Assembly: GCA_944358825.1 (NCBI GenBank)
Contig: CALVSA010000002.1
Location: 17,707 to 81,706 of the forward strand
Direction: 5' to 3'
Length of the DNA stretch: 64,000 nt
DNA from: an uncultured Bacilli bacterium
GTDB lineage: Bacteria; Bacillota_I; Bacilli_A; RF39; UBA660
Shown: positions 2,962 to 62,413 of the stretch, in pieces
Position numbering within the stretch: position 1 is the first letter of the stretch
Layout of the letters: every line of letters begins with the position of its first letter
The notes under the pieces: model-generated
Database searches by the model: none
What the model was told of the DNA's origin: nothing
The model's input: the letters and a program-made list of their open reading frames with translations, nothing else
Made by a program: the position numbers and the translations under genes

Positions 2962-3160
2962 AAAAAAGATGGTATAAAAGGACGAGAAAACCCGCGGTAC
3001 CACCTTTTTTTATAACTATGTTATACACTCAATTCTTAACGCGATTAAACGATTAAAACTAAAGGGTGAATTCATATTTAATAACTAGCTCTACTCTCAT
3101 CATCTAGAACTTTCTGTATAGTTATTTTACAAATACTACTACTTCCTTATTATTGTTTTA
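2962..3160 (-). promoter_or_regulatory. T-box riboswitch leader (Phe specifier) controlling the small ORF-pheS-pheT unit
   Basis: The minus-strand transcript carries the conserved T-box core AAAGGUGGUACCGCGGG (plus coordinates 2992..3004). A terminator follows in which GGUGGUA pairs with UACCAUC and is followed by a U-run (2964..2976). Upstream there is a GAAUUCA specifier-like triplet, UUC for Phe. Confidence 0.6.
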
Positions 3161-3703
3161 TTAAATAGTCATTAATTCTTTTTCTTTTTCTTTTAATTTT
3201 TCATCAACTATTTTGTTAAAATCATTAATTAATTCTTGAACTTTTTCATTAGCTCTTTTTTCTTCATCTTCACTTAACTCTAAATTATCAATTGCCTTAT
3301 TTGCATCTTGTCTGATATTACGAAGAGCAATTCTTGCTTCTTCAGCGATTTGTTTTACTTGTTTTACTAGTTCTTTTCTCCTATCTTCTGTTAAAGCTGG
3401 AATAACTATAAATATTGATTCACCATTATTATTTGGTGTTAATCCTAAATCAGCTTCAAAAATTGCCTTTTCTATATCTTTTAAAATACTTTTATCAAAT
3501 GGCTTTATTGATAATTGACGAGCTTCTGGAATAGAAATATTTGCTAGTTGTTTGATTGGAGTGTCAACTCCATAATAACTAACTGTTATGTCATTTAATA
3601 TATTAGGATTTGCTCTACCCGCTCTTACGTTAGTAAATTTATGTTCTAATGAATTAATTGATAATTCCATTTTTTCTTTGGCATTTTCTAATACACTTTC
3701 CAT
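3161..3703 (-). CDS. frr: Ribosome recycling factor
   Basis: 180 aa with the typical RRF length and sequence pattern (VRAGRANPNIL.., DLGLTP). Confidence 0.9.
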   Translation of the reverse strand: MESVLENAKEKMELSINSLEHKFTNVRAGRANPNILNDITVSYYGVDTPIKQLANISIPEARQLSIKPFDKSILKDIEKAIFEADLGLTPNNNGESIFIVIPALTEDRRKELVKQVKQIAEEARIALRNIRQDANKAIDNLELSEDEEKRANEKVQELINDFNKIVDEKLKEKEKELMTI

Positions 3704-17512: not shown

Positions 17513-17980
17513 TTATAAAACTATTTTTTTTAATAATTTTATAATTTCATTTATAACTTCTTGTTTACACTCCAATCTATTTTTCTTTTCTAATTTTATT
17601 TTTAGCTCGTAATATTTATCTAAATCTTTATCATAAATACTTACATAAACTACATCATTATCAGAATATAAGTTATATTTATCAACTTTATTTAATTTAC
17701 CAGTTATACCAACAGCATAATTAGAATTAGTAAAATTAGCTATAGTATAAGCCATATTATTAGCTACTTCTTGACTATAAACTGAATATTTATCTATTAA
17801 ACTAGCATTTATCTTCATTTTTATTTTAAACTCATTAGAATAAGTTACTGCTCCAAATTTAAAGACTTCACTTGCTCCTTCAATATTAGTAATTTCATTT
17901 GCTAAAGCACCACCTGTACAAGATTCCATGATAGATATTGTTTTGTTTAAGCTAGTTAATTTTTTAACAATCTCTTGCAT
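17513..17980 (-). CDS. CinA C-terminal domain protein (PncC-like NMN amidohydrolase)
   Basis: 155 aa with the CinA_C signature MESCTGGALANEIT. Confidence 0.65.
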   Translation of the reverse strand: MQEIVKKLTSLNKTISIMESCTGGALANEITNIEGASEVFKFGAVTYSNEFKIKMKINASLIDKYSVYSQEVANNMAYTIANFTNSNYAVGITGKLNKVDKYNLYSDNDVVYVSIYDKDLDKYYELKIKLEKKNRLECKQEVINEIIKLLKKIVL

Positions 17981-19005
17981 TATTTATTTAAATCAACCAT
18001 TATTTTAATCGAATTATTAGTATTTGATAATAATCTATCACAAGCATCTTGTGTATCTTCTAGAGAAATTATTTCATCTAAAAATTTTAAGACGTCGATT
18101 TTTTTAGTTGATATTAACTCAATACATCTTATAAATTCTTCTTTAGTATAGGCAATTGAACCAATTATCTTAAGTTCATTCATGACCGCTAGTACTGTTG
18201 GAATAGTAATTGGAGTTGGTGATACTCCTACTAAAACAACGCTTGAGCCTGGTTTAGCAAAAGTAAGGGCACTGCTAACTGCACTAGAATTTCCACAGCA
18301 TTCAATTGTTTTATCAAATGTAAACATATTGTTTTTAACATAATTATTGTATTCTTCTTCATCAGCCACATTTACAAATTCATCAACTACTTCTAATTTT
18401 AAAGCTTTGTTTGCTCTATTTTTATTAGTTTCTAATAAAGTTATCGAACTTGCTCCTGCTAGTTTGGCAAACATGGCACTAACAAGTCCAATTATTCCGC
18501 CTCCTATTATTAGAACTTTATCTCCTATTTCAATATCTGCTAAATTAACAGCGTGCAAGCCAACTGCTGTTGGTTCGACCATGGCTGCTTCTTCATCAGT
18601 TATATTATCATCTAATTTTATGACCATATCACTTCTTAACTTAATTTCTTGGCTTAAAGCTCCTGGATAATCTAGTGATAAACCAACGGCATGTGTCCAA
18701 GTTTCTTTGCAATAATGAATGTTTCCATTTAAACAAGCTTCACAATTTAGACAAGGAGATAATGGTAGAGCTGTTACTCTATCACCTACTTTTAAGTCTG
18801 TTCTATTTCCTGGATCAATTACAGTCCCACTAAATTCGTGTCCCATGATTAAACCAATTGGATTTCCTAATTCAAAATTATGTAGATCTGATCCACATAT
18901 TCCACATTTGCTTACTTTAATTATTACATGGTTATTATCTGCAATAGGTTCATTAGTTGTTGTTAATTCTAATTTCTTTTTATCTTTTATTTTTACACAC
19001 TTCAT
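17980..19005 (-). CDS. Zn-dependent alcohol/polyol dehydrogenase (MDR family; sorbitol/threonine dehydrogenase-like)
   Basis: CGICGSDLH and GHEFSGTV zinc motifs and a GxGxxG Rossmann motif. A GGAGG RBS is present. Confidence 0.8.
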   Translation of the reverse strand: MKCVKIKDKKKLELTTTNEPIADNNHVIIKVSKCGICGSDLHNFELGNPIGLIMGHEFSGTVIDPGNRTDLKVGDRVTALPLSPCLNCEACLNGNIHYCKETWTHAVGLSLDYPGALSQEIKLRSDMVIKLDDNITDEEAAMVEPTAVGLHAVNLADIEIGDKVLIIGGGIIGLVSAMFAKLAGASSITLLETNKNRANKALKLEVVDEFVNVADEEEYNNYVKNNMFTFDKTIECCGNSSAVSSALTFAKPGSSVVLVGVSPTPITIPTVLAVMNELKIIGSIAYTKEEFIRCIELISTKKIDVLKFLDEIISLEDTQDACDRLLSNTNNSIKIMVDLNK

Positions 19006-19016
19006 TTTCTACCTCC

Positions 19017-19098
19017 ATTTTCTTTATTATACTACAATATTTGATGTTAATAAATAAAATTTAGTAATTTATATAAAAAAACTAACAATTAAGTTAGT
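19017..19098. repeat. 82-bp direct repeat copy 1 (terminator hairpin plus -10 promoter), identical to 23620..23701
   Basis: Identical over 82 bp. It contains ACTAAC-aattaa-GTTAGT followed by a T-run on the minus strand, and TAgTATAAT just upstream of the ADH RBS. Confidence 0.9.
19026..19060 (-). promoter_or_regulatory. Putative promoter of the ADH gene inside repeat copy 1
   Basis: Minus-strand TATAAT at 19026..19031, about 15 nt upstream of GGAGGT and the ATG. Confidence 0.4.
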
Positions 19099-19101
19099 AT
19101 T

Positions 19102-21054
19102 TTATAGATTTCCTTTATAGAAATATATTTTCATTGCTTCTTCTGTATAAGTAGGTTTTGATATATCTATGTTAAGATAATTTGCTATATAATGGATTAG
19201 ATATTGTACTGCTACTAATAAGTCATATTCACATAGTATTCCATCATATCTACTTTCTATTATTAAAGCTTTGTTATTAGACAAATAATTTAGTAATTTT
19301 TCTTCGTATAAACTGGTACTTTTTTGTTTTAAATATATACTGTTTTTATTATTTAAATGTTCGTAATTTATGAATCTTCCATGTGAGAAATTTTTCTTTT
19401 CATGGACTAGACAATTATAAATGCCAGACTCTATTATTTTACTTTCTAAATCAATAGCAGACGATTCTGTAAAATCTCCCATAAAAATATTGAATTGATT
19501 ACCATTTTCTAACATCTCATTAAATTTTATTATATTGTTATTAAAATATTGTTTCCAATAATTAATACATTCTTTTATAAATTCTTCAACATTATTCATT
19601 TCTTTTTCTTCGAAATATAGCTTTAAAAACAAACTAGCGGGCACTAATGAACCCTCAAATGATAAAAAACCTCTTTCTTTTGATTTATTTGTTTTTGTAC
19701 GATATGAAATAATATTATTTTTATCTATTTTCGTTTGTTCTATAATTTTTTGTATTTCTCCCTTAGTTATTATGTATTTATTGTCATTTTTTATCGCGAA
19801 AGTGGAAACATATAAATCGTTAGTTGTACCTGAATATGTAAATAGAAAAGCTTTATCAACTTGAGAATTATTTCTATAATAAACATCTCTAGGCAATAAC
19901 GATAACGTTGTTATTCCATACACATCATTTATTATTTTAGATGCTATTTTAGCAGGGGCAAAAGACCCTCCTGTACCAATAAAGATACTATTTTTTAAAT
20001 TCAAAAAATCTATTGCTTTTATTTTGTTATATGCATCACTTTTAAGTGCGTTAATTACTCTTATTTCTAAATTATTTATATTAATATTACATCTTTTTAT
20101 TTTTTTTCTAATTGATAATTCAAAATTTTGACAAGAGCATGTATTTTTTATCTTTTTTATTTTATAAAGTCCTTGTATATGACCTCTTGCTCCAAGCTTT
20201 TTTACTACTTTTTTAGTTAATTTTGTTGCTTTTTCAAATGTTTCATCGATAAAATTTTTATCAATTATATAATCTTTTTTTATATACTCGCTAATGAAGC
20301 AAGAGAAAAATGCATCACCAGCACCAGTAGAATCAAGTTCTTCCGCTGGATTTGTAAGTTCTTTTGTAATTTTTGTATTATCAAAAGCAAAATCAGAACC
20401 TTTTTTCCCTCTTGTTACTATGATTAGCTTGGGATTAAACATATTATATATTTCTTCTAGTTTTTTTATTGAGTATCTTTTTTTTAAATATTTTTCTACT
20501 CTTTCATTTAAATTAATAATTTCAAATTTATTTTTAATTTTTTCTATAATTTCTTCATCTTTATAATTGTCTAGCTCAAAGTACTGTCCTAAATCCAGCA
20601 TTTTCTTGTTATGAGATTTATCTATTATTGTTTGATTTTTTAAATTTAAATTATCAAATACTAATATATCGTCTATATTTATTTTTTTTAATATATCTTC
20701 TACATCAATATTACTTTCTTCATACCAATTTTTTTGATTACATATAGGACATCTTTTTTTTGATGTAAATTCTAATTTCTCATTTTTCTCAAAATAAGAA
20801 ACATGAAAACATCTGGTCTTTAAATCTTTAATTATTTCTATATTATCTATATTTACACCTATATCTTCTAAACTTTTAATAGCTATTTTCCCTGCCATAT
20901 CATCTCCGCACACTCCATAGACAGCTGTTGGTATATTCATTGTAGCAATATTTGCAACGATATTGTGCGAAGTCATACCTCCGTTTATACCAACTAGTTT
21001 ATTATCTTTATAATAAAAATCTGTAACTAAATCACCAATACTAATTATTTTCAT
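19102..21054 (-). CDS. Fusion protein: PfkB-family sugar/nucleoside kinase (N-terminus) plus SIS phosphosugar-binding/isomerase domain (C-terminus)
   Basis: N-terminal ribokinase-like fold with the DSTGAGDAF anion-hole motif. C-terminal SIS motifs FIGTGGSFAPAKIAS and FLFTYSGTTND. A Cys cluster CPICN...CSCQN lies between them. Confidence 0.55.
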   Translation of the reverse strand: MKIISIGDLVTDFYYKDNKLVGINGGMTSHNIVANIATMNIPTAVYGVCGDDMAGKIAIKSLEDIGVNIDNIEIIKDLKTRCFHVSYFEKNEKLEFTSKKRCPICNQKNWYEESNIDVEDILKKINIDDILVFDNLNLKNQTIIDKSHNKKMLDLGQYFELDNYKDEEIIEKIKNKFEIINLNERVEKYLKKRYSIKKLEEIYNMFNPKLIIVTRGKKGSDFAFDNTKITKELTNPAEELDSTGAGDAFFSCFISEYIKKDYIIDKNFIDETFEKATKLTKKVVKKLGARGHIQGLYKIKKIKNTCSCQNFELSIRKKIKRCNININNLEIRVINALKSDAYNKIKAIDFLNLKNSIFIGTGGSFAPAKIASKIINDVYGITTLSLLPRDVYYRNNSQVDKAFLFTYSGTTNDLYVSTFAIKNDNKYIITKGEIQKIIEQTKIDKNNIISYRTKTNKSKERGFLSFEGSLVPASLFLKLYFEEKEMNNVEEFIKECINYWKQYFNNNIIKFNEMLENGNQFNIFMGDFTESSAIDLESKIIESGIYNCLVHEKKNFSHGRFINYEHLNNKNSIYLKQKSTSLYEEKLLNYLSNNKALIIESRYDGILCEYDLLVAVQYLIHYIANYLNIDISKPTYTEEAMKIYFYKGNL

Positions 21055-21096
21055 TTCTTACTCCTTATATAATTATTAATTTATTAACTTTACATT

Positions 21097-21124
21097 TTTG
21101 ACAATCTTAATTTTTTTTGTCAAA
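21097..21124. promoter_or_regulatory. Perfect 8-bp inverted repeat TTTGACAA-N12-TTGTCAAA between the two fusion-enzyme genes
   Basis: Seen directly in the sequence. It could be an operator, since it contains a TTGACA -35-like hexamer, or an intercistronic hairpin. Confidence 0.35.
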
Positions 21125-21151
21125 CTATTACATTTATTATCACACTATATC

Positions 21152-23473
21152 TTATTTTAATCTTTTTACATATTTTACCTCACTATTTTGAGAATAATCA
21201 CCATTTTTTGCTAAACATTCTAATATCTTCCTTCTGTTGAGATCAAAAATTCCCAACGAATCTTTATATGGATCTAAACTATTTGGATCTTTCCAACTAT
21301 AGGGACTTGGAAAATACAATCCTTGAATAAAACTAAAAAAGTATTTATAATCAACAGCGCCATGATTTGGCATAAACATTTGACTAATTCTGTTAACACC
21401 CGGATATCTAACGACAACAATTTTATCAATATTTATTCCTATATCATATAAACTTGTTATAGCAAGTTGCATTGTTTTTCCAGTTAGTAAATTATCATCC
21501 ATTAAAATGCATTTTTTATTTTTATCTATTTCTTTTTCTTCTATGCCACCTGCTTTAAATACATCAAAAAAGCGCAAATCTAACGACTGTTTTTTTGAAT
21601 AGCCGGAAACATTTTTATTAAAATTTAAAATCAATATATCTTCTAATTTATTGTTTATTGACTTTGTTATTATTGGAAGTTCTATTCCACCATAGCTCAA
21701 CCCACAAACTCCTTTATTTAATATTTCACAATCTTTACTTAAAGTCAAATAACATGTAATAAAATTCTCTGCAAAATTATCAATTTCACGATAAGCTCTA
21801 AAATCTTTTGAATAATTTTCTTTTCTTTTTTCATTAATAAACATCATTTTAAATTTTTCTGTAATAAAAATTGCATTGTTTATTAAGCAATATACATCTT
21901 TTATATTTATTTTATATTTTTTATCAAAAGATATCTTTTGCATCATTTGACTAACAAACAATAGAATACTATATATTTTAAATATTAAACTTTGATTATT
22001 AACTTTTTGCAAATTTACTAGCAAACTTTTTTGTGGGTTAACATTTATTATCTGCTGATTTAGTAATATAAGCAACTGATTTCTTATATTATCTATTAGG
22101 GCTAAAACCATTTTTGTATCGTTTAAATCCTCTATATATTGAAAATGTTTAATGGCATCTAATGCTTCTAAATAAAATTTCTTATTATTTTCTAACCAAT
22201 TATATACCATTTCTTTTGTTGTTACATCTTCTCCTGTTATTTCATTATGAAATCTTCTGGATAAAAAATAATAATATACTTGTGATCCTCTTAACAAAAT
22301 ATTTTCGTTATCAAACATTGAATATATCATATAGGAAGATACTTGTTTATTCCAAAATATTTTTAATGGATTATTATCATCTATACATATCCACTCATAC
22401 ATGGGTATTTTTATACTTCCACTTGACTTATCATATAATCCATATATACCATCCACTAGCTTGAACTTATCATTAATAATATTATTAAAAACCTGTACCC
22501 GCTGGTTTTTACCTAAATTCATTTGTTTTTCTATTTTTGAATATCCCTTAATATAATCATTTTCAATTGCGTGTACTAAACAAATTGTTGGTAAAAGTTT
22601 AACTTTATTTAATAATAATATAGTAGCATCAACACCAGTTATTATTTGTTTGTCATCATTTATTACTGGAAAACATTTGTCGTTAACTTTACTAGTTTTA
22701 TTAACACTAAATCCTTGTGAACAGTTAAGCATACTATAATCATTTCCTAATTCATCTCCACAGTCACCAATTCTTAACATCGAACTTTCTGGTATTCCAA
22801 TAATTCTTTCAGCGGTCATAATTGCTTTACTTTTAGTTGCTGCGCCTATTTGAATAATTTTATTACCATTGAATATTCCAATACTCATGTTTATGTTTTC
22901 TGAATTTATCATTTTTATAGAATCTTTTATCAAATTCAAAATATAATCATCTATTGTTTTGTTATTAGAATGTATTTCTATTATAATATTAATAATTTTT
23001 TTTAATTTTTTATCTATTGAATGTGTAACATTACAATACTTTGACATTCTTTTGTCTGTTAGTTTTTTTATTAATTCACTATTTACGTTTTTTAAGTTTT
23101 CTAAATCTGATGATGAGATAATATATTTATCTTGATCAAATACTTTTGTGCTATTTAAAGTTGTAGTGAAAATTCTTGCACCATCATTTGTGATAGCATA
23201 CAATCTAGACAATTGCTTATTACTAACTTTATATTTTATTTTTAATACTTCAATTATTTCTTTTTCTAATCTTTGCAATACTGTTTCGCCTCTACCAGTA
23301 ATAAACACAACTGGAATGTAATCTTTTAATATTTCGGCTAATATCGGTATAATCCTTTGGTCTATTTTTATTGAATTATTCTCTGTCAACGTTCCATCGA
23401 CATCTAAACATACTGCATTATATTTTTGACTTAATGCTTTATTATAATTTTGTATTAATTTTTCTTCTAACAT
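21152..23473 (-). CDS. Fusion protein: HAD-IIB (Cof-type) phosphatase N-terminus, central domain of unknown function, C-terminal type I phosphoribosyltransferase domain
   Basis: HAD motif I CLDVDGTLTEN. C-terminal PRPP-binding motif KCILMDDNLLTGKTM with GLSYGGIELP upstream. Total 773 aa. Confidence 0.55.
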   Translation of the reverse strand: MLEEKLIQNYNKALSQKYNAVCLDVDGTLTENNSIKIDQRIIPILAEILKDYIPVVFITGRGETVLQRLEKEIIEVLKIKYKVSNKQLSRLYAITNDGARIFTTTLNSTKVFDQDKYIISSSDLENLKNVNSELIKKLTDKRMSKYCNVTHSIDKKLKKIINIIIEIHSNNKTIDDYILNLIKDSIKMINSENINMSIGIFNGNKIIQIGAATKSKAIMTAERIIGIPESSMLRIGDCGDELGNDYSMLNCSQGFSVNKTSKVNDKCFPVINDDKQIITGVDATILLLNKVKLLPTICLVHAIENDYIKGYSKIEKQMNLGKNQRVQVFNNIINDKFKLVDGIYGLYDKSSGSIKIPMYEWICIDDNNPLKIFWNKQVSSYMIYSMFDNENILLRGSQVYYYFLSRRFHNEITGEDVTTKEMVYNWLENNKKFYLEALDAIKHFQYIEDLNDTKMVLALIDNIRNQLLILLNQQIINVNPQKSLLVNLQKVNNQSLIFKIYSILLFVSQMMQKISFDKKYKINIKDVYCLINNAIFITEKFKMMFINEKRKENYSKDFRAYREIDNFAENFITCYLTLSKDCEILNKGVCGLSYGGIELPIITKSINNKLEDILILNFNKNVSGYSKKQSLDLRFFDVFKAGGIEEKEIDKNKKCILMDDNLLTGKTMQLAITSLYDIGINIDKIVVVRYPGVNRISQMFMPNHGAVDYKYFFSFIQGLYFPSPYSWKDPNSLDPYKDSLGIFDLNRRKILECLAKNGDYSQNSEVKYVKRLK

Positions 23474-23619
23474 AGCTACCTCTCAATTATTTTTTCAAAC
23501 TTTTTATTGTTTTGAACTCTTCATTCAGTATCGAATATTACTCCGTCAAAATCTATTAAAATTTTCTTATTATTCACGTTTTTCCATCACTCCTTTTATT
23601 TTTAAAATCGTTTTAAATA

Positions 23620-23701
23620 ATTTTCTTTATTATACTACAATATTTGATGTTAATAAATAAAATTTAGTAATTTATATAAAAAAACTAACAATTAAGTTAG
23701 T
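23620..23701. repeat. 82-bp direct repeat copy 2, identical to 19017..19098
   Basis: Identical sequence. The terminator hairpin overlaps the stop codon of the ABC-2 permease gene. Confidence 0.9.
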
Positions 23702-24860
23702 TTGAAAACAAAATATTTTCTGATTTATATTGTTTTATTATTACTTTTAATACAATTGCAATAATTACAACTGTTGATATTAACATTAATACTATATTTA
23801 ATATATCAAAATTTCCATTAACTAAATCAGTAAATATCATTGTATAATTTAAAAATGGAATTATAGAATATATAGCACTATTTTCTAAATTAACCATAAA
23901 TGCAATCATTGATGGAAAGAAAGATATAAATGTAAGTGGTGTTAAAGCACTTTGAGCTTCTTTAAATGATTTTGATTTACTTGCTATTGCTATACATAAA
24001 CCACTAATTAATAAAGAGTATGCAATAATTGTAACGATTGCATAAATTATACTACTTAATGGTAACATCAAATTAGCATTTTGATATATTGTAAACATAT
24101 CTTTTGCTATAAATAATGATACTATAGTTAATATTAGACTAATTATACCAGTAATTATTGAAGATAAGGAAACACTAAAGAATTTACCTAAAATAATATC
24201 TTTACTTTTAATTGGAAAAGTTAGTAGAGTTTCTAATGTTCCTCTTTCTTTTTCTCCTGCAGTGGCATCAGTTGCAGGATAAGTTGCAGATACTGTAATA
24301 GCCATAATTATAAATAAGAAGGCATAAACTGTTATGTAATTTGCAAAATAATTTTCTTGTTCACTTATATTTTTATTAATATTAATTATATTTAAAACAT
24401 TATTTACATCTATATTATTATTTATTAAATACTCGTTTTGTAAATACTCTTTATATGTATTTAGATAAGTTTCCGCTAATATAGTGGCTAGTGATGATAT
24501 TTCATTATCGCTACCATTAATTGTATAATTATTATTTTCTTTAGTTATATATAAATCGATTTCACCATTATTATATTTTTCTACTAATTTCTCTTTGGTA
24601 TCGTATACTGTAACGATATTGGTATTTTTTATTATTTCTTGTTCAACTTTTTCCGGTTCATAATTAATACCAATAGTATTATATTCACTAATATCTCTAT
24701 TCATTTGTGCTTCAAATAATGCTGACATTCCTAATACTAATAGTGGTATCATAAATGGAATAATAAGCATCATTGCTAATGATTTTTTATCTCTAAACAT
24801 TTCTCTTAATTCTTTTTTTAATACAAATAATAGATTACTTTTCATGTTTTTCACTTCCAA
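23697..24860 (-). CDS. ABC-2 family transporter permease (NatB-like)
   Basis: 387 aa with a large first extracytoplasmic loop and then 5-6 TM segments. Its start overlaps the end of the ATPase gene. Confidence 0.7.
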   Translation of the reverse strand: MEVKNMKSNLLFVLKKELREMFRDKKSLAMMLIIPFMIPLLVLGMSALFEAQMNRDISEYNTIGINYEPEKVEQEIIKNTNIVTVYDTKEKLVEKYNNGEIDLYITKENNNYTINGSDNEISSLATILAETYLNTYKEYLQNEYLINNNIDVNNVLNIININKNISEQENYFANYITVYAFLFIIMAITVSATYPATDATAGEKERGTLETLLTFPIKSKDIILGKFFSVSLSSIITGIISLILTIVSLFIAKDMFTIYQNANLMLPLSSIIYAIVTIIAYSLLISGLCIAIASKSKSFKEAQSALTPLTFISFFPSMIAFMVNLENSAIYSIIPFLNYTMIFTDLVNGNFDILNIVLMLISTVVIIAIVLKVIIKQYKSENILFSN

Positions 24861-32001: not shown

Positions 32002-32051
32002 ATGGCGTCCCCGATTGGAATTGAACCAACGACCTATCGCTTATGAGGCGA
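32002..32051. repeat. attL-type core repeat (tRNA 3' half)
   Basis: Matches 37842..37891 at 49 of 50 positions. Confidence 0.8.
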
Positions 32052-32079
32052 AGGCATTTTCCTATTATGCTACAGGGAC
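32003..32079 (-). tRNA. tRNA-like gene with anticodon CAT (Met/Ile2-type), probably the element-derived attP-side hybrid copy
   Basis: 77 nt that fold as a cloverleaf with a perfect 7-bp acceptor stem and a D stem GCAT/ATGC. The anticodon stem has a U-U mismatch at its top. It has 3' CCA. Its 3' half is identical to that of tRNA-Arg at 37843. Confidence 0.5.
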
Positions 32080-32529
32080 ATATACCTTAATTTTAAAATA
32101 TTAATATCAAAATCAAGGTTATTTTTTCAAATTTTCATTGTTTTTTTTAAAGATAAAGACAATTTTTCGCGACTATTTTGCGACTATCTTATTTCTTTAA
32201 AACCTGTCCTTCCTCGTAAAATAAAGGTTTCTAATACATTTTCCTTTATTTTAAACAACTCCTTAGGAGAGAAGAGTTTTAAATTTCAAAATCAATCCGT
32301 TTTTTTCAAAACCCTTGTTTTTTCTAACAAAACCGCGATATTTTTAAAATTTAATTTTCAATACAAAGTGTAGATTTTAAATAATTTTAAATATAACTAT
32401 TTAATTGTTGCGACAAAATCGCGACATCTAACTTTGAAATTCTGTCCTAATTAGTTCTTCGCCTCAAGAACTCCCATTTCTCATCAATATTATAACAATT
32501 TTTTTCTATAATAACAACAACTATATAAT

Positions 32530-34308
32530 TCATGGAAGTGGAATTAATATATATTCATTACCATATTTTTCTTTATAATATTCTAACTTATCCCACACAT
32601 TATTAAAGTCAATTTCTTCTACATTTATTTTTTTAAATATAGGATATCTATTATCAAAATATTTCTGAATTTTAGACAACTTGTTTTCCCTATCCTCATC
32701 AGCATTATTAACTGCATATTTGAGTAAATCATCTATTTCTTTTGTAGGAGCAAAATTAATTCCTGTATATAAAGAAAGCATTTGATTAAAAGTAGTTTTA
32801 ACTTCTCCCTTTGCATTATAATATTTATCAAATACAGAAATTGCATCTAGTGTTTTATCTTCATTTGAATGTGTATAGATAAAAGTAGTAGATAGTTGTG
32901 AATGTCCCATTAACTTTTGAACATCAGCTGGAGATAAGTTTGGATTTTCATTCATTTGCATAGTACAATAACTATGTCTTAATCCATGTAACGATACATT
33001 TCTTATTTCTGGATGTCTTTTTCTAAAATCTAACCATTTACTAGAAACAGAATCAGGGAACATTATTCCCCCATATTTGCTTAAAAACAGATTTTCCGGT
33101 GGATTATAATTATCAAATTTTCTTTTAAACCTTTGAATAATCCTATCTCTTAACTTAAAATATTCTCTAATAATTTCTGTGCAAAATAATGGTATTGGGA
33201 CATTTCTAACACTATTTTTTGTTTTAGTATCTTTTTCAACTATTTTTTGTTTTTCCTTATCTCAAACGACTGCTCGTTTTACTGAAATTGAATTGTTTAT
33301 AAAATCAATGTCATCAATGTGTAAGCCAAGTATTTCTCCTCTTCTTAACCCTGTGCATATTGAAATTGTAAACATAGTTTCAATTAATAACCCTTCTTCT
33401 TTCAATAAATCTAATATTTTCATTAATTCTTCTCGATTGTAGGACTGCTTTTCTTTTTTAGAAACCTCGGGTGTCTTTACTTTTAACACAGGATTAGTTT
33501 CAATATAGTCCCAAGCAACTGCTTTATTAAGAATCTTCCTCAAAAGTCTATATACCCCATTAACAGTTGTTTCAGATAATTTTTTTACACTACCATCTTT
33601 TTCTTTTCTTTCTTTATCTCTATCTTTTAAATTGTTAATAATTTTTTGAATTACTAATACATCAATTTTATTTAAAGGATAATTAGCAATCTCTGGCAAT
33701 ATATATGTTCTTAATGAACTCTTACCACTTGCAACAGTTGTAGGACTTAACTCCACTTCTGCATATTCTTTATAATAAATTCTTACAAAATCAATAAATC
33801 TAATATTCCCTTTATCACTTTTCCCATTTTTTAATTTTAGCTCTGCTAATCTCTTATCCCTTTCCTTTTTAGCCTGTGCTAAAGTCCCTTCAAATACTTT
33901 TGAATAGTATTCTCCCTTTTGACCATTTTAGCCACCCTTTCTAATAAATATCCTATATTTTTTCCCTTTTTCAATCTCATATAAGTATTTATCTACTTTT
34001 TTAGTATCTTTCCCTGATACTGTTGCCCGTGGTTTTGTTGGATTAGTTTTAGTTTGCTTTTTTTCCTTTGCATCAAATTCAGCAAAGAAATAAGTTTTCT
34101 TCTTTTCAGTTTCTAAACATAATCCATTTTCTTTTAATTTATTATCTCTTAAATTTCTGGCCTCATCTAAACTACCATTAATATATTGATCAAAACTAAT
34201 TCGAATATTACGTGTCTTATCTACTTTTAAAAACTTTACCCTATATCTGTTTTCAGAAACATAATAAATATATTTATCTACTTTTTCTTGCATTTTTCCA
34301 CCCTCCAT
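32530..34308 (-). pseudogene. Tyrosine site-specific integrase, disrupted by an in-frame TAA at 33928..33930 and a frameshift near 33250..33265
   Basis: Three ORF pieces are collinear with one phage integrase. 33928..34308 is the arm-binding N-terminus. 33262..33756 is the core-binding region and box I R (TGLRRGEILGL). 32530..33063 is the catalytic HGLRHSY...GHSQLSTTFIYTH region. The first two pieces are in the same frame, separated by a single stop. The second and third are in different frames. Confidence 0.75.
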
Positions 34309-34568
34309 TAAATTTCATATTTATTTTTTTCATTATTCATAAAAAAACTCCCTCCTTTTGACCAAAGAGAGAAAAAAATCTTTTCAAATTAATATTTTTG
34401 TGTATAATATTAAGTGTGTTGGATTTATTAATCTCCTTGGTCGGAAATTATAATAAACCAACACATTTTATTTTGCAATATTTTTTTGCCAGAAAATAAA
34501 GACTTTTCGTTAGAAATTTGGTACAATTAGATATATGAAATGTTATTCATATTTAGGAGATGATATTT

Positions 34569-35387
34569 ATGGAAAAATTAAATCTAGATACTTTAGAAGA
34601 AACATTGTTTGTTCCAATGAGAGGAAGAGTCTTTTGCAGTAGAACTTTTCCAGATACTTTTAAAGATGAAAAAGCATTGGAAATAGCAAAAGAGTTACCA
34701 GAAGAATATATGAATTTAGAAAGAGAAACAGAATATACTTTAATGGCTAGTGCTATTAGAAGTAAAAATATGGATATTTATATCAAAAAATTCTTATCAA
34801 AGAATCCTAATGGAACAATTATAAATGTTGGATGTGGAATGGAAACAACATTCTATAGAAATGATAATGGTAAATGTATATTTATTGAAATGGATTTAGA
34901 AGAAGTAACATCAATGAGAGAAAAAGTTTTTGGCAAGAATAAAAGAGATATTATACTAACTAAATCATTACTTGATTATAGTTGGATTGAAGATGTTAAA
35001 AAAATAGCAAAAGGTCCATATTTAATAATTGCAAGTGGAGTGTTCTATTATTTTCCTAAAGATCAAATAATAGATTTTTTAAGAAAAGTAAAATTATTAG
35101 GTAATGTAGAAATATTATTTGATACTGTTTCTAAAAGTGGAATGAAGAGAACAAAAAAATATATGAAACAATTAGGAAAAGAAGATGCAACAATGTATTT
35201 CTATGTAGAAAAAGGAAAAGAATTAATTAATGAAATTGGAAATAATTGCAAATTAATTGATGAACATGATTTTTATGATTTTACCGAAAATAAAAGTAAA
35301 TTTAAATTTAAAACAAAACTATATATGGTTATTTCAGATAAACTTCATATGGTTAAAATGATACAATTAAAATATGGAGATGAATAA
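34569..35387 (+). CDS. SAM-dependent methyltransferase, TcmP/LCM (leucine carboxyl methyltransferase-like) family
   Basis: IINVGCGMETTFYR resembles the VVnLGaGlDTRayR motif of the LCM/TcmP family. An AGGAGA RBS precedes ATG at 34569. Confidence 0.55.
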   Translation: MEKLNLDTLEETLFVPMRGRVFCSRTFPDTFKDEKALEIAKELPEEYMNLERETEYTLMASAIRSKNMDIYIKKFLSKNPNGTIINVGCGMETTFYRNDNGKCIFIEMDLEEVTSMREKVFGKNKRDIILTKSLLDYSWIEDVKKIAKGPYLIIASGVFYYFPKDQIIDFLRKVKLLGNVEILFDTVSKSGMKRTKKYMKQLGKEDATMYFYVEKGKELINEIGNNCKLIDEHDFYDFTENKSKFKFKTKLYMVISDKLHMVKMIQLKYGDE

Positions 35388-35388
35388 T

Positions 35389-36165
35389 ATGAATATATTA
35401 TTGGGATTATTGATACCTTTTGTTGGAACCACATTAGGAGCTGCAATGGTATTCCTAATGAAAAACAAATTAAATAAAAAGGTCGAAAAAGTATTATTAG
35501 GTTTTGCTTCTGGTGTTATGGTAGCTGCTTCCGTCTGGTCATTACTTATTCCATCAATTGATATGGCAAAAGAGCAAAATATAATAGCTTGGTTACCAGC
35601 AACCGTGGGATTCATTTTAGGAATTGTATTCTTATTAATATTAGATAATATAATTCCCCATTTACATATTAAAAGCAAAGAACCAGAAGGATTAAAATCT
35701 AAATTAGGAAAATCTGCAATGATGGTATTAGCTGTAACACTTCATAACATTCCAGAAGGTATGGCTGTTGGAGTTGCTTTAGCTGGAGCAATTAGTGGTA
35801 ATAGTACGATTACCGTGATGGGAGCAATTGCTTTATCAATAGGAATTGCAATTCAAAACTTCCCAGAGGGTGCGATTATATCAATGCCATTAAAAGAAGA
35901 AGGAAATACTAAAAGTAAGTCATTTATATATGGTACATTATCAGGTATAGTTGAACCTATATTTGGAGGACTTACTATTTTACTAACTTCATTAGTAGTT
36001 CCAATTTTACCTTATTTATTATCATTTGCAGCAGGAGCTATGATATATGTAGTTGTAGAAGAATTAATACCAGAATCACAGGTTGGCAAACATTCAAATT
36101 TGGGAACGATAGGATTTGCGTGCGGGTTTATCTTAATGATGATCTTGGATGTAGCATTAGGTTAA
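35389..36165 (+). CDS. ZIP-family divalent metal transporter (ZupT-like)
   Basis: Eight TM helices with the ZIP signature HNIPEGMAVG and the second motif QNFPEGAII. Its start codon abuts the methyltransferase stop, so translation is coupled. Confidence 0.8.
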   Translation: MNILLGLLIPFVGTTLGAAMVFLMKNKLNKKVEKVLLGFASGVMVAASVWSLLIPSIDMAKEQNIIAWLPATVGFILGIVFLLILDNIIPHLHIKSKEPEGLKSKLGKSAMMVLAVTLHNIPEGMAVGVALAGAISGNSTITVMGAIALSIGIAIQNFPEGAIISMPLKEEGNTKSKSFIYGTLSGIVEPIFGGLTILLTSLVVPILPYLLSFAAGAMIYVVVEELIPESQVGKHSNLGTIGFACGFILMMILDVALG

Positions 36166-36376
36166 AATAGATCGGAAGATTAAGATATTGTGATTAATGA
36201 GATAGTTGAAAAACCTATCTTTTTATTTTTTTGTCTTATTATAAGAAACGCGAAAGGAAATATGCTATTGCATTATGCTATTGCATTATAAAAACTTAAA
36301 TAAAAAACAAGTTTTTTCACAAAAGTCATAAAAAGGCAATAAAGCCCCTTACCCCATAAAAAGTATTATGTGATTA

Positions 36377-37790
36377 TTAAGTTAATAATGTTTTTTTAGT
36401 ATAAATTAGAATACTATTAATAATCTTTCTACCAGAAGTAGTCAAATAATATTTATTCTTATTGGCTACTTTTTTAATAAGTCCATGGGCTTTTAATTTT
36501 GATAACAGTCTAGTAGTCTTGTTAATAGTTTTCTTATCTTCACTATTTTCAAAAATATTTTTTCTAATCATTTTGTTAGTAAAACCATTAATTAAGTATT
36601 CGCCTTTAGATATTTCAGAAAATATTTTTAAATTTTGTTCATTTAAAATATTAATTCCAGAATAAACTTTATTATTAATTTCTGCTCTTTTAGATATCCT
36701 TTCAATTTCCTTTAAAGGAACTTCATCAATATTAATATCAGGTAATGCTTCTATATATCTTTTTATAATGTTTTTACTTATTTCTACATATCGATATAAA
36801 TTTGCAATACTTTTTCCCATAGGAACCCATTGTTTTGTTTCTACAATTTCTCCAGTTTCATCATTTTCTTTAGTTTTCAACACTTTAAAATCCTTAGGAT
36901 TATTGATAGTAACTTCAATCCTTAAATTGTTTCCTTTATCATACATTTTGATTTGATTATTATTAATCTTAAATTTTATTCGGTAACCTTGATACCTGTT
37001 TCTTAAATCGGAAACAATTTCTCCTTTTTTTAAAGTATTAATATAATTCACATTTCTACCAAAGAAAGAATATATATCTTCACTACTAAATGTAAAGTAT
37101 GTAGTTTCAACCAGTGTCTTATAAAATAAACTTAAGTCTTCACGACTTTTAAAATTAATATCAGTTGCAAACTCACATTGATCAATACACCAGTAATATG
37201 AATGATTAAATATGTTTCTAATTTTAGGTAAATGAATATTTATCTTCTCAACTAATCCATCAAAAGAATCAGATATTTTTTTATTCAAAATACTATCTGC
37301 AAGTTTTTGAGATTTTTCAAAATCTTCAATATATGAAAAAGAATTGTTATACATTTCATATTTAATATTATTCTTATCAAGTAATTTAGATAAATATTCT
37401 CTTCCATTGATATAAATTTGGACATTATAAGGAAACCAAGTTTGGATTTTTAGAAACATTAAACCAAACTCTTCATCATTAAAGTAAAAATAATAATGCT
37501 TACATTTAGTAGGTCTTGGGGGAACCTCTAACTTTTTCTATTTCTAAATAATGATACTCTTGCAATTCCTTTAGTATGGATCTAATTCCATCTCTACCCT
37601 CTTTACTTATAGAGCAAAGACCTGCCAAAGAATAATCCCAATCTTCTGGCAAACTTAACATAAACGATAATAACCCTTTAGCTTTATACGATAAATTTTT
37701 ATCTCTTAAGTGATAATTAGACATAACAGTATAGTTATTATTTTTTTCTATTTTAAAAACTGACATATTTACACCTCCTAACATTTGCAA
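36377..37790 (-). pseudogene. Replication initiator with a RepA_N-family N-terminus, split by a frameshift at a C5 run (37478..37482) into 94-aa and 360-aa ORFs
   Basis: The N-terminal ORF carries the RepA_N pattern YTVMSNYHLRDKNLSYKAKGLLSFMLSLPEDWDYS. The downstream ORF's frame stays open upstream across GGTTCCCCCAAGACC, where the two frames overlap. Confidence 0.5.
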
Positions 37791-37841
37791 AATAAAACTG
37801 ATTTAGTTTATAGTATCTAAATCAGTTGAATTAACACAAAA

Positions 37842-37891
37842 ATGGCGTCCCCGATTGGAATTGAACCAACGACCTATCGCTTAGGAGGCGA
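37842..37891. repeat. attR-type core repeat (tRNA-Arg 3' half)
   Basis: Matches 32002..32051. Confidence 0.8.
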
Positions 37892-37919
37892 TTGCTCTAT
37901 CCTACTGAGCTACGAGGAC
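37843..37919 (-). tRNA. tRNA-Arg (anticodon CCT)
   Basis: 77-nt cloverleaf with acceptor GUCCUCG/CGGGGAC, D arm GCUC-AGUAGGAUA-GAGC, anticodon arm AUCGC-CUCCUAA-GCGAU, T arm GUUGG-UUCAAUU-CCAAU and an encoded CCA. Confidence 0.8.
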
Positions 37920-50118: not shown

Positions 50119-51462
50119 TTAGTTAATTAATTGATAAGGAGAACTCGAAGTTCCATTACCAGAAGTTATTGTAACATTAGAGTTTAGATAAAGGACTGGG
50201 CGGGAGGAGCCGGAGTTAGTAGCATTGTTGAGGTCAACATAACCCATACTATGAACGATAAAGACGCGGTAGGAAATACCAGCGTGAGAAGCGAGTGTCC
50301 ATTGACGATTAGATGAATCATATAAATAATCATTGTTTTTACAATCACTATAACTTGAGCTATCCCAGTTATATAATTCTTTGGCTAAACATGATGCTCT
50401 ATTAGTTGTTGTTCCACCACTTGTTGCATACCCATAATCTGATGGATACATTAGGGCTATTTTACCTACCCATGTGGTTGGATTTCCAGAATATACTGTC
50501 GTTCCTCTTTCATAATTATAAAAGTGGCTGGCTAGTCCATTAGATGCACTTGTATATGAATTTGTTCCACCTAAATTCCATAAAGTGTTGCCAATCATAG
50601 ACTCTGCTTCACTTGTTAAGCTATTTAAATATTCACCATTTAAATATGTATTTAATGAGGCTGTTGACCAGTTGTTTCTATCATTTGAATCCCATACATA
50701 TTTTCCTATACTCTCATCTCTTATTATTTTTAATCTCTTTTCACTTTCGCCATTTTCACTAGATTTTACATCAAATACTCCTATTATTCTCCATAATTCA
50801 TTATTAAAACTTACATAGTTATTAGGATCTGCTCCCATATATCTTATATTACCATCTAGATCATCGTTATTCATGGTAGTTGGATTACTATCAAGTAATG
50901 ATGTTATTACATCAGTAGCTAATTTTGATTTAATATATTCACTACTTATTCCATCACTTACTATTTTTGCACTAAAAATCTTACCAATTTCCGTATTTGG
51001 TGTATTTATATCTAACCATATTCTTATACTTATTATCTTACTTTCTCCTGGATTTAGAGTTAAATCACTGGCTATAATATTATTCTCTAGATTAGATAAA
51101 CTAACAGGTTCATTATTATCTACCATTATTTTTATATAATTAGGATTTATTTGATTAGATGTAGTAGTGTTATTTAATAACAAATCAAAAGTATAAGCTA
51201 AATTACCTTTATTTGTTATTTTAAATCTATAAGGAGTACTACTCTTTCCCTCTTCATCTGTTATAGGCAAACTATTTGTAAGATTTAGTACCTCTCCTAA
51301 TCCTTCTTCATCATTTTCTATTACTATATCTAATATACCCGCAGTATAACTTTCTGTATTTTCTAGTTTATCTTTTCTAAAAAATAAAGCATAAGTAGTA
51401 GTTGATAAAATTAATAAAACTACTATTATTGATATAACTAATATAATTACTTTCTTTTTCAT
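50119..51462 (-). CDS. Secreted protein with a TasA/camelysin-like (SipW-cognate signal-peptide class) N-terminal domain and a unique Asn/Ser/Tyr-rich C-terminal domain
   Basis: The N-terminus MKKKVIILVISIIVVLLILSTTTYALFFRKDKLENTESYTAGILDI resembles TasA/CalY TWAAFNDIK...FASGTLDL. VLNLTNSLP...FKITNKGNLAYTFDL resembles VNLSNLKPGD..FENNGSLAI. The first ~180 aa are ~90% identical to the paralog at 61057. Confidence 0.5.
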   Translation of the reverse strand: MKKKVIILVISIIVVLLILSTTTYALFFRKDKLENTESYTAGILDIVIENDEEGLGEVLNLTNSLPITDEEGKSSTPYRFKITNKGNLAYTFDLLLNNTTTSNQINPNYIKIMVDNNEPVSLSNLENNIIASDLTLNPGESKIISIRIWLDINTPNTEIGKIFSAKIVSDGISSEYIKSKLATDVITSLLDSNPTTMNNDDLDGNIRYMGADPNNYVSFNNELWRIIGVFDVKSSENGESEKRLKIIRDESIGKYVWDSNDRNNWSTASLNTYLNGEYLNSLTSEAESMIGNTLWNLGGTNSYTSASNGLASHFYNYERGTTVYSGNPTTWVGKIALMYPSDYGYATSGGTTTNRASCLAKELYNWDSSSYSDCKNNDYLYDSSNRQWTLASHAGISYRVFIVHSMGYVDLNNATNSGSSRPVLYLNSNVTITSGNGTSSSPYQLIN

Positions 51463-51601
51463 ATTTTTACTCCTTTACATAACAAAAAAACAGAAAAAGA
51501 TTCTAAAATTTAGAATTATTTTCTGTTTTTACTGTTTTATTATTAAATATTTTACTATTTTTTAGTAATAAATTTGACCCCCGCATTTACTTATAGTTAA
51601 C
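50938..51601. repeat. Duplicated ~665-bp segment, copy A (5' coding region plus promoter plus upstream terminator), paralogous to 61648..62312
   Basis: About 90% nucleotide identity with long identical runs, including the hairpin AAAAACAGAAAAAGATTCTAAA-ATTTAGAATTATTTTCTGTTTTT. Confidence 0.85.
51486..51530 (-). terminator. Rho-independent terminator (long imperfect hairpin plus U-run) upstream of the TasA-like gene
   Basis: AAAAACAGAAAAAGATTCTAAAATTTAGAATTATTTTCTGTTTTT. Confidence 0.5.
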
Positions 51602-51633
51602 ATATTTATTTTCATTATTACACCTTCTTATTC

Positions 51634-61056: not shown

Positions 61057-62172
61057 TTAACAACTAAATCCGCCATTTCCAATATCTTCTGCTCCACCTC
61101 CACCTTTTGCATAAACAACACCACCATTTATTCTAATTATACCTGTAACAGAAGCCTCTTTATAACCTCCAATTCCTGCACCACCACCTGCTCCACTTCC
61201 ATTATCATAACCTTCCATATTAGTTGCTCCTATTCCTACTCCTCTACCTTCTGAATTTAATACCCCTGTTCCATCTATTATTAATTTTGATGAATAAGAA
61301 ACATATAAACCAACTGATGGTGAAGCACTTGAAGAAGAATTTGTTTTTAAACTATTTTCTCCTTCAATTTGCAAATTAACTACTGAATCATTAAATAATC
61401 TAAATGTGCCTCCATTAAATCTATCTTCTGTTATACTAACATTATTTAATGTTATATTAGATTCTCCTCCATTAATAGTTACTCCTCTATTATCTGTTGC
61501 AGTTCCTGTTATAACAATAGGTGTTTTATTTGATATTTCTTGTTGAGAATCTAGTCCTCCACCACTTACTAATAATGTATTATCACCATTTCCTTTATCT
61601 ATAGTAATTGCTCCTTTTGATATACCTAAATTCATTATTTCTGGAGCCTCACTACCTACTCCATCACTTACTATTTTTGCACTAAAAATTTTTCCTATTT
61701 CACTATTTGGTGTATTTATATCTAACCATATTCTTATACTTATTACCTTACTTTCTCCTGGATTTAGAGTTAAATCACTGGCAATAATTGAATCTTTTAA
61801 ATTAGATAAAGTAACTAGCTCTTTATTATCTACCATTATTTTTATATAATCAGAATTTATTTGATTAGAAGTAGTTGTATTATTTAACAACAAATCAAAT
61901 GTATAAGATAAATTACCCTTATTAGTTATCTTAAACTTATATGGATTACTTTTCTTACCTTCTTCATCTGTTATAGGCAAACTATTTGCAAGATTTAGAG
62001 TTTCCCCTAATCCTTCTTCATCGTTTTCTATTACTATATCTAGTATTCCAGCAGTATAACTTTCCGTATTTTCTAGTTTATCTTTTCTAAAAAATAAAGC
62101 ATAAGTAGTAGTAGATAATATAACTAAAACCACTATTATTGATATAACTAATATAATTACTTTTCTATTCAT
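61057..62172 (-). CDS. Secreted protein with a TasA/camelysin-like N-terminal domain and a Gly-rich (beta-helix-like repeat) C-terminal domain; paralog of 50119..51462
   Basis: The N-terminal ~180 aa are near-identical to the paralog. The C-terminus is GGGLDSQQ...GSGAGGGAGIGGYKEASVTG...GGGGAEDIGNGG. A GAAGGAG RBS precedes ATG at 62172. The track start at 62193 is further upstream. Confidence 0.5.
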   Translation of the reverse strand: MNRKVIILVISIIVVLVILSTTTYALFFRKDKLENTESYTAGILDIVIENDEEGLGETLNLANSLPITDEEGKKSNPYKFKITNKGNLSYTFDLLLNNTTTSNQINSDYIKIMVDNKELVTLSNLKDSIIASDLTLNPGESKVISIRIWLDINTPNSEIGKIFSAKIVSDGVGSEAPEIMNLGISKGAITIDKGNGDNTLLVSGGGLDSQQEISNKTPIVITGTATDNRGVTINGGESNITLNNVSITEDRFNGGTFRLFNDSVVNLQIEGENSLKTNSSSSASPSVGLYVSYSSKLIIDGTGVLNSEGRGVGIGATNMEGYDNGSGAGGGAGIGGYKEASVTGIIRINGGVVYAKGGGGAEDIGNGGFSC

Positions 62173-62312
62173 ATTACTCCTTCTTTCACACAATAAAAAA
62201 ACAGAAAAAGATTCTAAAAATTAGAATTATTTTCTGTTTTTATTATTTTATTATTAAATATTTTATTATTTTTTAGTAATAAATTTGACCCCCATATTTA
62301 CTTGTAGTTAAC
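61648..62312. repeat. Duplicated ~665-bp segment, copy B
   Basis: Paralogous to 50938..51601. Confidence 0.85.
62196..62241 (-). terminator. Terminator hairpin, duplicate of 51486..51530, downstream of the aminopeptidase gene
   Basis: AAAAAAACAGAAAAAGATTCTAAAAATTAGAATTATTTTCTGTTTTT. Confidence 0.5.
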
Positions 62313-62413
62313 TTGTTATTTACTTTATTATTTATATTTAGGCTTTGCTCTTTTAACATATTAACCACTTCCTTTACTATTTAAGTATATCACATTAGTT
62401 AATTTTCTGCAAT

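Follow-up and report, generated by a model that had tools for sequence, protein, structure and literature searches.

The locus examined here raises the question of why one and the same intergenic sequence should stand on both sides of a pair of large fusion-enzyme genes, and how those genes came to lie where they do. It belongs to a 64,000-nt stretch of contig CALVSA010000002.1, from an uncultured bacterium of the Bacilli, which we call the window throughout. Within it the 82-nt stretches at 19017-19098 and 23620-23701 are identical and form a direct repeat, named R, and the block that they enclose encodes proteins of 773 and 650 aa. Comparison with relatives demonstrates that R is the native spacer between an ABC-2 permease gene and an alcohol dehydrogenase (ADH) gene of this species and not a dispersed element, that the block is a derived, strain-variable insertion, and that it is a truncated copy of a four-gene cassette regulated by a WYL-domain protein. 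We consider it probable that the 3' end of the permease gene was the site at which this mobile cassette inserted, duplicating the spacer R, and that the cassette then decayed from its left side or had entered already truncated.

All genes of the locus lie on the minus strand, in the order ABC ATPase, ABC-2 permease, R copy 2, HAD-like remnant, 773-aa gene, 650-aa gene, R copy 1, ADH, CinA and cysteine desulfurase. The features on which the argument depends are, in the direction of transcription:

23697..24845, minus strand: ABC-2 family permease, a flanking host gene; 382 aa from the ATG at 24845 (387 aa from an alternative TTG start at 24860), with its stop codon inside R copy 2
23620..23701, minus strand: R copy 2, which lies upstream with respect to transcription, now ahead of the block
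23701 to 23678, minus strand: within R copy 2, the last 2 nt of the permease gene and its TAA stop (23699-23697), the hairpin (23701-23684) and a run of seven T (23684-23678)
23657 to 23629, minus strand: promoter-like parts of R copy 2, a -35-like TTTATT (23657-23652) and a TATAAT (23634-23629)
19099..23619, minus strand: the inserted block, 4521 bp, made up of the HAD remnant, the 773-aa gene and the 650-aa gene
23476..23577, minus strand: small HAD-like pseudogene remnant, 102 nt, which reads VNNKKILIDFDGVIFDTE, a stop, RVQNNKKFEKIIER and a second stop, and retains its own ribosome-binding site (RBS)
21152..23473, minus strand: the 773-aa gene, encoding a three-part protein
21055..21151, minus strand: spacer of 97 nt between the 773-aa and 650-aa genes, with an inverted repeat TTTGACAA...TTGTCAAA at 21124-21097
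19102..21054, minus strand: the 650-aa gene, encoding a PfkB kinase half and a SIS-like half
19017..19098, minus strand: R copy 1, the downstream copy, with its hairpin at 19098-19081 and TATAAT at 19031-19026
17980..19005, minus strand: zinc-type alcohol/polyol dehydrogenase (ADH), a flanking host gene, which lies directly 3' of the ABC-2 permease in the sister species

No exact direct repeat in the window is longer than R, the runner-up measuring 47 nt; when the window was simulated 20 times under a first-order Markov model, the longest direct repeat expected by chance came to 17-22 nt. The two copies are again 100% identical in each block-bearing contig from another sample that spans both (L001/L009, L007, L008, L010, L011 and L017), and an assembly artefact is therefore excluded; the identical repeat reported at both sites by the initial annotation is thus real across independent samples. 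The same annotation had offered a portable promoter-terminator cassette as one interpretation and had named many genomic copies, as of a repetitive extragenic palindromic (REP)-like element, as the finding that would overturn its view. Neither idea agrees with the distribution of R: searches with its halves at up to 3 mismatches recovered two copies only within the 64 kb, no R-like sequence occurs in the 1.45 Mb of relatives' loci compared, no contig of the JGI metagenomes matches R exactly, and Rfam holds no match for R or for the block.

The layout of R ties it to the two host genes. It starts 2 nt ahead of the permease stop codon, and copy 1, which begins 3 nt past the stop of the 650-aa gene, ends directly 5' of the GGAGG of ADH and 11 nt before its ATG, in front of the ADH RBS as had been proposed. 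The hairpin, T-run and -10 box described earlier are all present as sequence features. The hairpin, ACTAAC-TTAATT-GTTAGT followed by T7, has a 6-bp stem with 2 G-C pairs and a predicted energy of -5.0 kcal/mol alone, or of -7.3 to -9.1 kcal/mol with flanking A/T pairing, while a perfect TATAAT at R positions 68-73 follows a -35 element, TTTATT, that matches 3/6 positions at 17-nt spacing. Judged from these letters, the upstream copy of R would now supply a promoter to the block and the downstream copy its terminator, and ADH would retain signals of its own.

Evidence that the block is an insertion comes from genomes that lack it. The closest other species, whose ADH is 79% identical, carries an acyltransferase, the ABC ATPase, ABC-2, ADH and CinA in that order, with a 48-nt spacer ahead of ADH and neither the block nor R. 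Because both this sister species and the commonest lineages of the species itself are without the block, we regard it as derived, and the discrete accessory module postulated by the initial annotation, which had called for just such a comparison, is backed as the product of an insertion with a local intergenic duplication. In the species, the 90% cluster of ADH comprises about 75 contigs, whereas the cluster of the 650-aa protein comprises 18 and the exact 773-aa protein is found on 19; no GTDB species representative has a match of about 100% to the latter.

The block-less ADH alleles that we examined are of the V50/K120 type (P0122, P0123 and P0128; 24 contigs shown of 48 read). In all of those shown, the right end of an IS605-family insertion sequence (IS) lies between R positions 26 and 27 (L032-L041, L125-L134 and L136-L139), a junction that equals window 19073/19072 and reads ...TTTGTTCT to the left and ATAAATTAC... 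to the right. These contigs extend 68-307 nt 5' of ADH, contain no block-derived sequence and end inside the TnpB element; the insertion parts the hairpin and T-run of R from the TATAAT box 5' of ADH. The P0123 and P0128 lineages additionally have one single-nucleotide difference in R (TTTTATTT to TTTTGTTT). The assignment of the element rests on its similarity to an annotated OrfB_IS605 element of the sister species; there (L122/L123, 9401-10606) an IS605-family TnpB lies directly 3' of CinA, its 3' end being 70% identical to the element inserted in R. Block-less contigs of the species have the two halves of R apart, the promoter-like half adjoining ADH and the hairpin half adjoining the permease (L022), and these halves beside their own genes, together with ABC-2 abutting ADH in the sister species, are the arrangement expected of a target that was duplicated upon insertion.

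The tail of L022 was followed further. At 1857-1950 this contig runs from the permease end through R 1-26, with one loop mismatch, into sequence 95.5% identical to window 26947-26881 (minus strand), which is the spacer upstream of the acyltransferase gene; TTTAT stands 5' in both, and a small hairpin, GTTCTT..AAGAAC, is present. The TnpB element of the sister species shows no match to this tail in the region of its left end. The tail may represent the left terminus of the IS, a remnant resembling a miniature inverted-repeat transposable element (MITE), or a junction formed where the acyltransferase-ABC-ABC-2 segment was tandemly duplicated or circularised.

What was inserted becomes clear from the relatives of the block. 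Homologues of the 773-aa protein number about 600 at full length (48-65% identity) and those of the 650-aa protein more than 1100 (68-74% among the matches listed), the 650-aa family being 54-74% identical across species. A scan of species-representative genomes placed relatives of the cassette in at least 107 species of uncultured gut Bacilli, including Ca. Faecisoma, Onthousia, Caccenecus, Coprosoma, CAG:302, CAG:321 and CAG:472. In its full form the cassette encodes an HTH_11-WYL regulator of about 197 aa, a 159-aa DxDG HAD protein (HAD159), a 773-type protein and a 650-type protein. This order holds in most of the 80 loci kept from a tblastn search, and also in L025-L031; WYL was detected in 72/80 and HAD159 in 67/80, and the 773 and 650 genes are the last two of the cassette in each relative examined. 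We found no description of such a cassette in the literature.

Measured against these relatives, the window copy has lost its beginning. Its homology to the cassette extends from near the RBS of the HAD remnant, some 25 nt past R, to 3 nt beyond the 650 stop; the window copy retains neither the WYL gene nor the native promoter region, and the upstream copy of R stands in the place of the latter. The truncated HAD-like reading frame at 23577-23476, already recognised in the initial annotation, is real and aligns to both the N- and the C-terminus of HAD159: it consists of the first ~26 and last ~8 codons of the 159-aa gene; position 19 is occupied by a nonsense codon, and ~120 internal codons are deleted. 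At the position of the 97-nt spacer between the two large genes, relatives have genes that abut or overlap, or they carry optional genes, and the spacer may be the scar of a lost insert. The optional genes occupy this one fixed point of the cassette (L042, L044, L047, L049, L051, L057, L086, L087, L092, L097, L099, L107 and L030) and are a CAT-family acetyltransferase with a carboxylesterase, an esterase alone, or a DHH phosphoesterase with an APH-type kinase; the pairs comprise enzymes that attach or remove acetyl or phosphate groups.

The cassette has no fixed home. ADH, ABC-2 and CinA adjoin it in none of the 80 relatives' loci, 219/268 clusters of neighbouring genes are singletons, and its 116 immediate neighbours fall into 152 Pfam families. 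Around it we found neither shared synteny nor an enrichment of integrases, serine recombinases making up 3/116 immediate neighbours. The neighbours that do recur in the 80 loci are NUDIX (5), Ham1/ITPase (3) and HD_4 (3) proteins, a weak hint of a tie to nucleotide housekeeping.

The bracketing seen in the window recurs elsewhere. Comparing the 4 kb upstream with the 4 kb downstream of the cassette in 64 loci uncovered, in many of them, direct repeats of local host sequence, the control in inverted orientation giving no more than 16 nt. These repeats are 20-300 nt long and differ from group to group (also listed are L110, L112, L092, L071 and L104). Six groups besides the window are tightly bracketed: the downstream copy begins -5 to +1 nt from the 650 stop, 32-111 nt separate the end of the upstream copy from the WYL start, and nothing but the cassette, without a recombinase, lies in between. 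Their repeats are:

L100: repeat of 286-300 nt, consisting of the upstream gene's 3' end
L101: repeat of 39 nt
L095: repeat of 30 nt
L081: repeat of 32 nt
L070/L043: repeat of 30 nt
L060: repeat of 29 nt, degenerate in L120, L062 and L061

In a further locus, L109, a repeat of 41 nt (75 nt at 85% identity) has its downstream copy beginning 38 nt after the last aligned 650 codon, and looks like a terminator plus promoter feeding WYL on one side and the next host gene on the other, a layout like that in the window. The 3' end of secA is repeated at L044 (43 nt) and L072 (40 nt), and in L028 the cassette lies in a 10.3-kb island that has a 20-nt secA-end repeat at its bounds and a tyrosine integrase inside. 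The variety of targets, the length of the repeats and the right junction anchored at a stop codon do not fit a simple decay of an integrase-bearing island. The comparison extends the initial annotation in three respects: the block is a truncated form of a cassette conserved in more than 100 species, bracketing by host-derived repeats is recurrent, and R itself has received an IS605-family insertion.

The sequence of events that we favour as probable is as follows. In one clade, a copy of the horizontally mobile cassette would have landed at the 3' end of the permease gene, and the insertion would have duplicated the spacer, leaving one R on each side. The cassette would then have decayed from the left, or have arrived truncated. 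Both large enzyme genes stand intact right behind the upstream R. The insertion would have followed the attachment-site (att) logic known from integrative elements whose targets are gene 3' ends, the recombinase having presumably acted in trans or since been lost. Once present, the two 82-bp copies of R would allow RecA to delete the block precisely, or to re-insert a circle composed of the block and R.

Several observations weigh against this sequence of events. No recombinase was found within or adjoining the block, none of whose encoded products has a recombinase domain, and the window's sole integrase, a split pseudogene, lies 9 kb off in a separate tRNA-associated element. Nothing in its composition marks the block as foreign, a comparison of GC content and codon usage that the initial annotation had suggested finding no difference (GC 0.24 and GC at third codon positions (GC3) 0.14-0.16 in the block; GC 0.20-0.31 and GC3 0.05-0.15 in the flanks). 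No donor has emerged, the nearest cassette homologues being only 64-74% identical. The repeat sequence differs in every insertion group, such that a single site-specific integrase cannot explain the repeats, and an identity of 82-300 nt is long for att cores. The terminator and promoter of R are weak by consensus, with a function that is predicted: both fail a consensus scan, although in DNA of 23% GC that scan is uninformative, calling 51 promoter-like sites where 46 were expected. The 48-nt spacer of the sister species has neither hairpin nor promoter, and thus ADH may simply be co-transcribed with the permease. In the block-less lineages, the linkage of ABC-2 to the IS is one that we infer, no single contig covering both. 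Finally, the only place with an intact single R is a short contig (L023) carrying the permease, one R and ADH, and this contig is probably a chimera of two strains. Its permease side has 0/1296 mismatches to the block-bearing strain, and on the ADH side it carries the P0122 allele, which elsewhere always bears the IS; the 56 nt common to both could bridge an assembly graph. Because its sides belong to a block-bearing strain and to an IS-lineage allele, we downgraded L023 as proof of an empty site and set it aside.

The best-surviving rival, which we consider unlikely though by no means negligible, is a Campbell-type event, in which a circle of the block and R, formed for example by R x R excision and taken up by transformation, recombines through RecA with a chromosomal R to give R-block-R. 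A perfect identity of 82 nt, and of up to 300 nt in L100, suits homologous recombination better than the core of a recombinase, and no recombinase lies inside the repeats. The block also varies by 0-2 nt per 4.5 kb among bearing strains while their flanks differ by ~0.3%, as expected of a recent spread between backgrounds. This low diversity is, however, partly built in, since the block-bearing contigs were retrieved by means of the exact 773-aa protein, and it is also compatible with a single acquisition plus recombinational imports into the flanks. Bearing strains, moreover, are closer together in their ADH-side flanks (0.04-0.5% from the window) than they are to the block-less IS lineages (~1%), which a single acquisition with vertical descent fits too. 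The model further requires a prior copy flanked by R, so that it covers spread within the species, for which it is a plausible route, and not the origin of the first duplication, and it leaves unexplained why independent insertions in other species have their right junction at the 650 stop.

A bolder alternative, which strikes us as quite improbable, takes the cassette to be a self-contained mobile element that has no recognisable recombinase, whose undescribed mechanism duplicates 20-300 nt at gene 3' ends or terminators and sets its right end at the last codon; its genes would constitute a new small-molecule conflict or signalling pathway, based on a nucleoside or sugar phosphate, with the optional enzyme pairs tuning the molecule.

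There is a small chance that the block is ancestral in the species and that the block-less lineages arose through an R x R deletion. With 82-nt direct repeats, precise deletion would be easy, and closest homologues of 64-74% identity indicate that there was no recent import from any sampled species. Yet the sister species has neither block nor R, the diversity of the block is far below that of its flanks, and the bearing strains are a minority clade; even if some lineages did lose the block, an earlier insertion with duplication would be needed.

A still slighter chance attaches to a two-step history, in which a promoterless block entered between the ADH promoter and its RBS and a separate 82-bp copy was later kept because it restored expression of ADH. 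Each transcription unit here indeed ends in a hairpin and begins with TATAAT, and the terminator-plus-promoter-like repeat of L109 stands likewise before the cassette and before the next host gene. Two precise illegitimate events would nonetheless be demanded, and the bracketing recurs in at least six other groups, including promoterless coding 3' ends (secA and a 286-nt gene end), which argues for one insertion process and not for repeated selection to restore a promoter. That R is a generic dispersed element, REP- or MITE-like or a portable promoter-terminator, and flanks the block by chance is barely credible, for although it is compact, hairpin-bearing and AT-rich like many small dispersed repeats and is targeted by an IS605-family element in other strains, it has the distribution of two copies per 64 kb described above, and its halves are anchored to the permease stop and the ADH RBS and are found apart beside those genes in block-less strains.

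Among described elements, the nearest category to the block is that of the cis-mobilizable elements (CIMEs), which are att-flanked, integrase-less derivatives of ICEs (integrative and conjugative elements) and IMEs (integrative and mobilizable elements) which target gene 3' ends in Firmicutes (PMC5704250). Like a CIME, the block lies between direct repeats that take in the end of its target gene upstream, lacks genes for integration or transfer, and is strain-variable, and the secA group comprises an integrase-bearing locus (L028) and two integrase-less ones (L044 and L072) on a shared target. It departs from a CIME in that the permease/ADH site has no known cognate integrase or ICE and, like the remaining tightly bracketed groups, yielded no integrase-bearing relative, and in that the cassette repeats are 29-300 nt and distinct per insertion group. 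In the window and the six groups, furthermore, the repeats hug a cassette of 4.5-5.6 kb whose right junction lies at a stop codon, and random decay of a larger element would not leave bracketing as tight as this.

The genomic islets, or minimal mobile elements, of Neisseria lie between conserved flanking genes and are swapped through transformation and homologous recombination. They resemble the block as small, strain-variable cassettes between conserved genes and without mobility genes, the alternative occupant here being the IS605-family element, but they are not defined by a duplicated target, whereas here the 82-bp spacer is doubled and the cassette occurs at unrelated sites elsewhere. Campbell-type integration shares with our locus an insert between two identical direct copies of a homologous segment, reversible by recombination, but does not account for the origin of a circle already holding host sequence at the first insertion in a new species.

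Turning to the gene products, we find that the 773-aa protein comprises a Cof-type HAD-IIB phosphatase domain (~1-290), a middle domain (~296-572) and a domain like the type-I phosphoribosyltransferases (PRTases; ~590-773). The first has the HAD core with a type IIB cap and the DxDGT nucleophile motif. For the middle domain no family was found, its best PDB match being a CDC123 homologue at E 0.029. The PRTase-like domain has a phosphoribosyl pyrophosphate (PRPP) loop, LMDDNLLTGKT, in which D659, D660, N661, T664 and K666 are invariant; against PF00156 the protein itself scores 18.2 bits, below the cut-off of 26.3, and the same profile matches 18/35 family members with a best E of 9e-5. The N-terminal half of the 650-aa protein belongs to the ribokinase/PfkB family (PF00294, 49.7 bits against a cut-off of 25.8) and its GAGD motif, G244-A245-G246-D247, is invariant; Foldseek aligned this half with aminoimidazole riboside (AIR), fructo- and nucleoside kinases in the PDB at E 8e-15. 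The C-terminal ~320 aa resemble a double SIS of the GlmS/AgaS type, with GxGGS and SGTT motifs. A profile of this part retrieved SIS-domain sugar-phosphate isomerases or deaminases in 10/10 PDB matches (best E 0.0024), 9/10 of them GlmS-type or glucosamine-6-phosphate deaminase, and PF01380 matches 13/18 family members, all below threshold and at best with E 0.0015, the window protein itself being unmatched. Confidence in the structure model is low for residues 502-650, and the fold search confirmed the kinase half only. Since the residues of the catalytic motifs are invariant and are kept in the window proteins, both genes look functional.

Kinase and SIS domains are also paired in FrlD/FrlB, a kinase with an SIS deglycase, and the 650-aa protein joins a PfkB kinase to a part like the double SIS of GlmS and AgaS; its weak NCBIfam kinase matches include fructoselysine 6-kinase. 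Scores far under the family thresholds, and the fusion of both parts in one polypeptide, set it apart from these enzymes. The chemistry of the cassette is likely to involve phosphoribosyl transfer, dephosphorylation, phosphorylation and isomerisation of a molecule resembling a nucleoside or sugar phosphate, under WYL control.

WYL-domain proteins regulate other accessory operons, as do BrxR with BREX and CapW with CBASS. PRTase-containing defence systems are represented by ShosTA (PMC11961720) and by the effector of retron III-A3 (PMC12746101). The cassette is like these in that the mobile accessory operon of the relatives opens with an HTH-WYL regulator and contains a PRTase-type domain, but it has no toxin/antitoxin, reverse-transcriptase or nuclease partner, and the window copy is without WYL. 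PADLOC-DB v2 models gave no match to the 650-aa or 773-aa protein at E up to 0.1, and no relatives of the 773-aa protein occur on IMG/VR viral contigs.

In PLSDB there is a single distant, partial homologue of the 773-aa protein, a 473-aa protein on Bacillus cereus plasmid pRML02 (NZ_CP011157.1, 105228-106649) that matches residues 322-770 at 27.8% identity (E 2e-20). A CatA-like O-acetyltransferase lies next to it, as in many cassettes of the relatives, but the HAD-IIB domain, the PfkB/SIS partner and the WYL gene are missing and its surroundings look biosynthetic. The cluster around it (L135, NZ_CP011157.1 97315-114625) includes an acyl carrier protein, an adenylate-forming enzyme, pyridoxal phosphate-dependent enzymes, ABC exporters and a plasmid-borne extra metG, and resembles a gene cluster for a natural product that carries a resistance copy of the product's target.

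Taken alone, the repeat is an ordinary signature of insertion, yet it reveals a widespread, unnamed four-gene cassette of uncultured gut Bacilli and brings two large, highly conserved fusion enzymes to attention. The locus offers a case for how integrase-less cassettes move and join host transcription, the promoter-like spacer of ADH here replacing a lost WYL-controlled promoter. Described as three states of one locus within one species, the block, the IS605-family insertion and the ancestral adjacency provide a usable natural experiment.

Other features of the window lie apart from this locus. At 32003-37919 (minus strand), the 3' halves of tRNA-Met (32003-32079) and tRNA-Arg (37843-37919) are identical over 42 nt, and the 5.8 kb between the two genes contain a tyrosine integrase split in two open reading frames (33756-33262 and 33063-32530); this interval has the appearance of a small integrated element whose integrase has decayed. 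A T-box leader at 2975-3162 (minus strand) scores 97.8 bits, over the Rfam gathering score. A distance of 10.7 kb separates the segments 50939-51606 and 61649-62317, probably paralogous genes, which share 88-90% identity over stretches of 300 nt and 136 nt.

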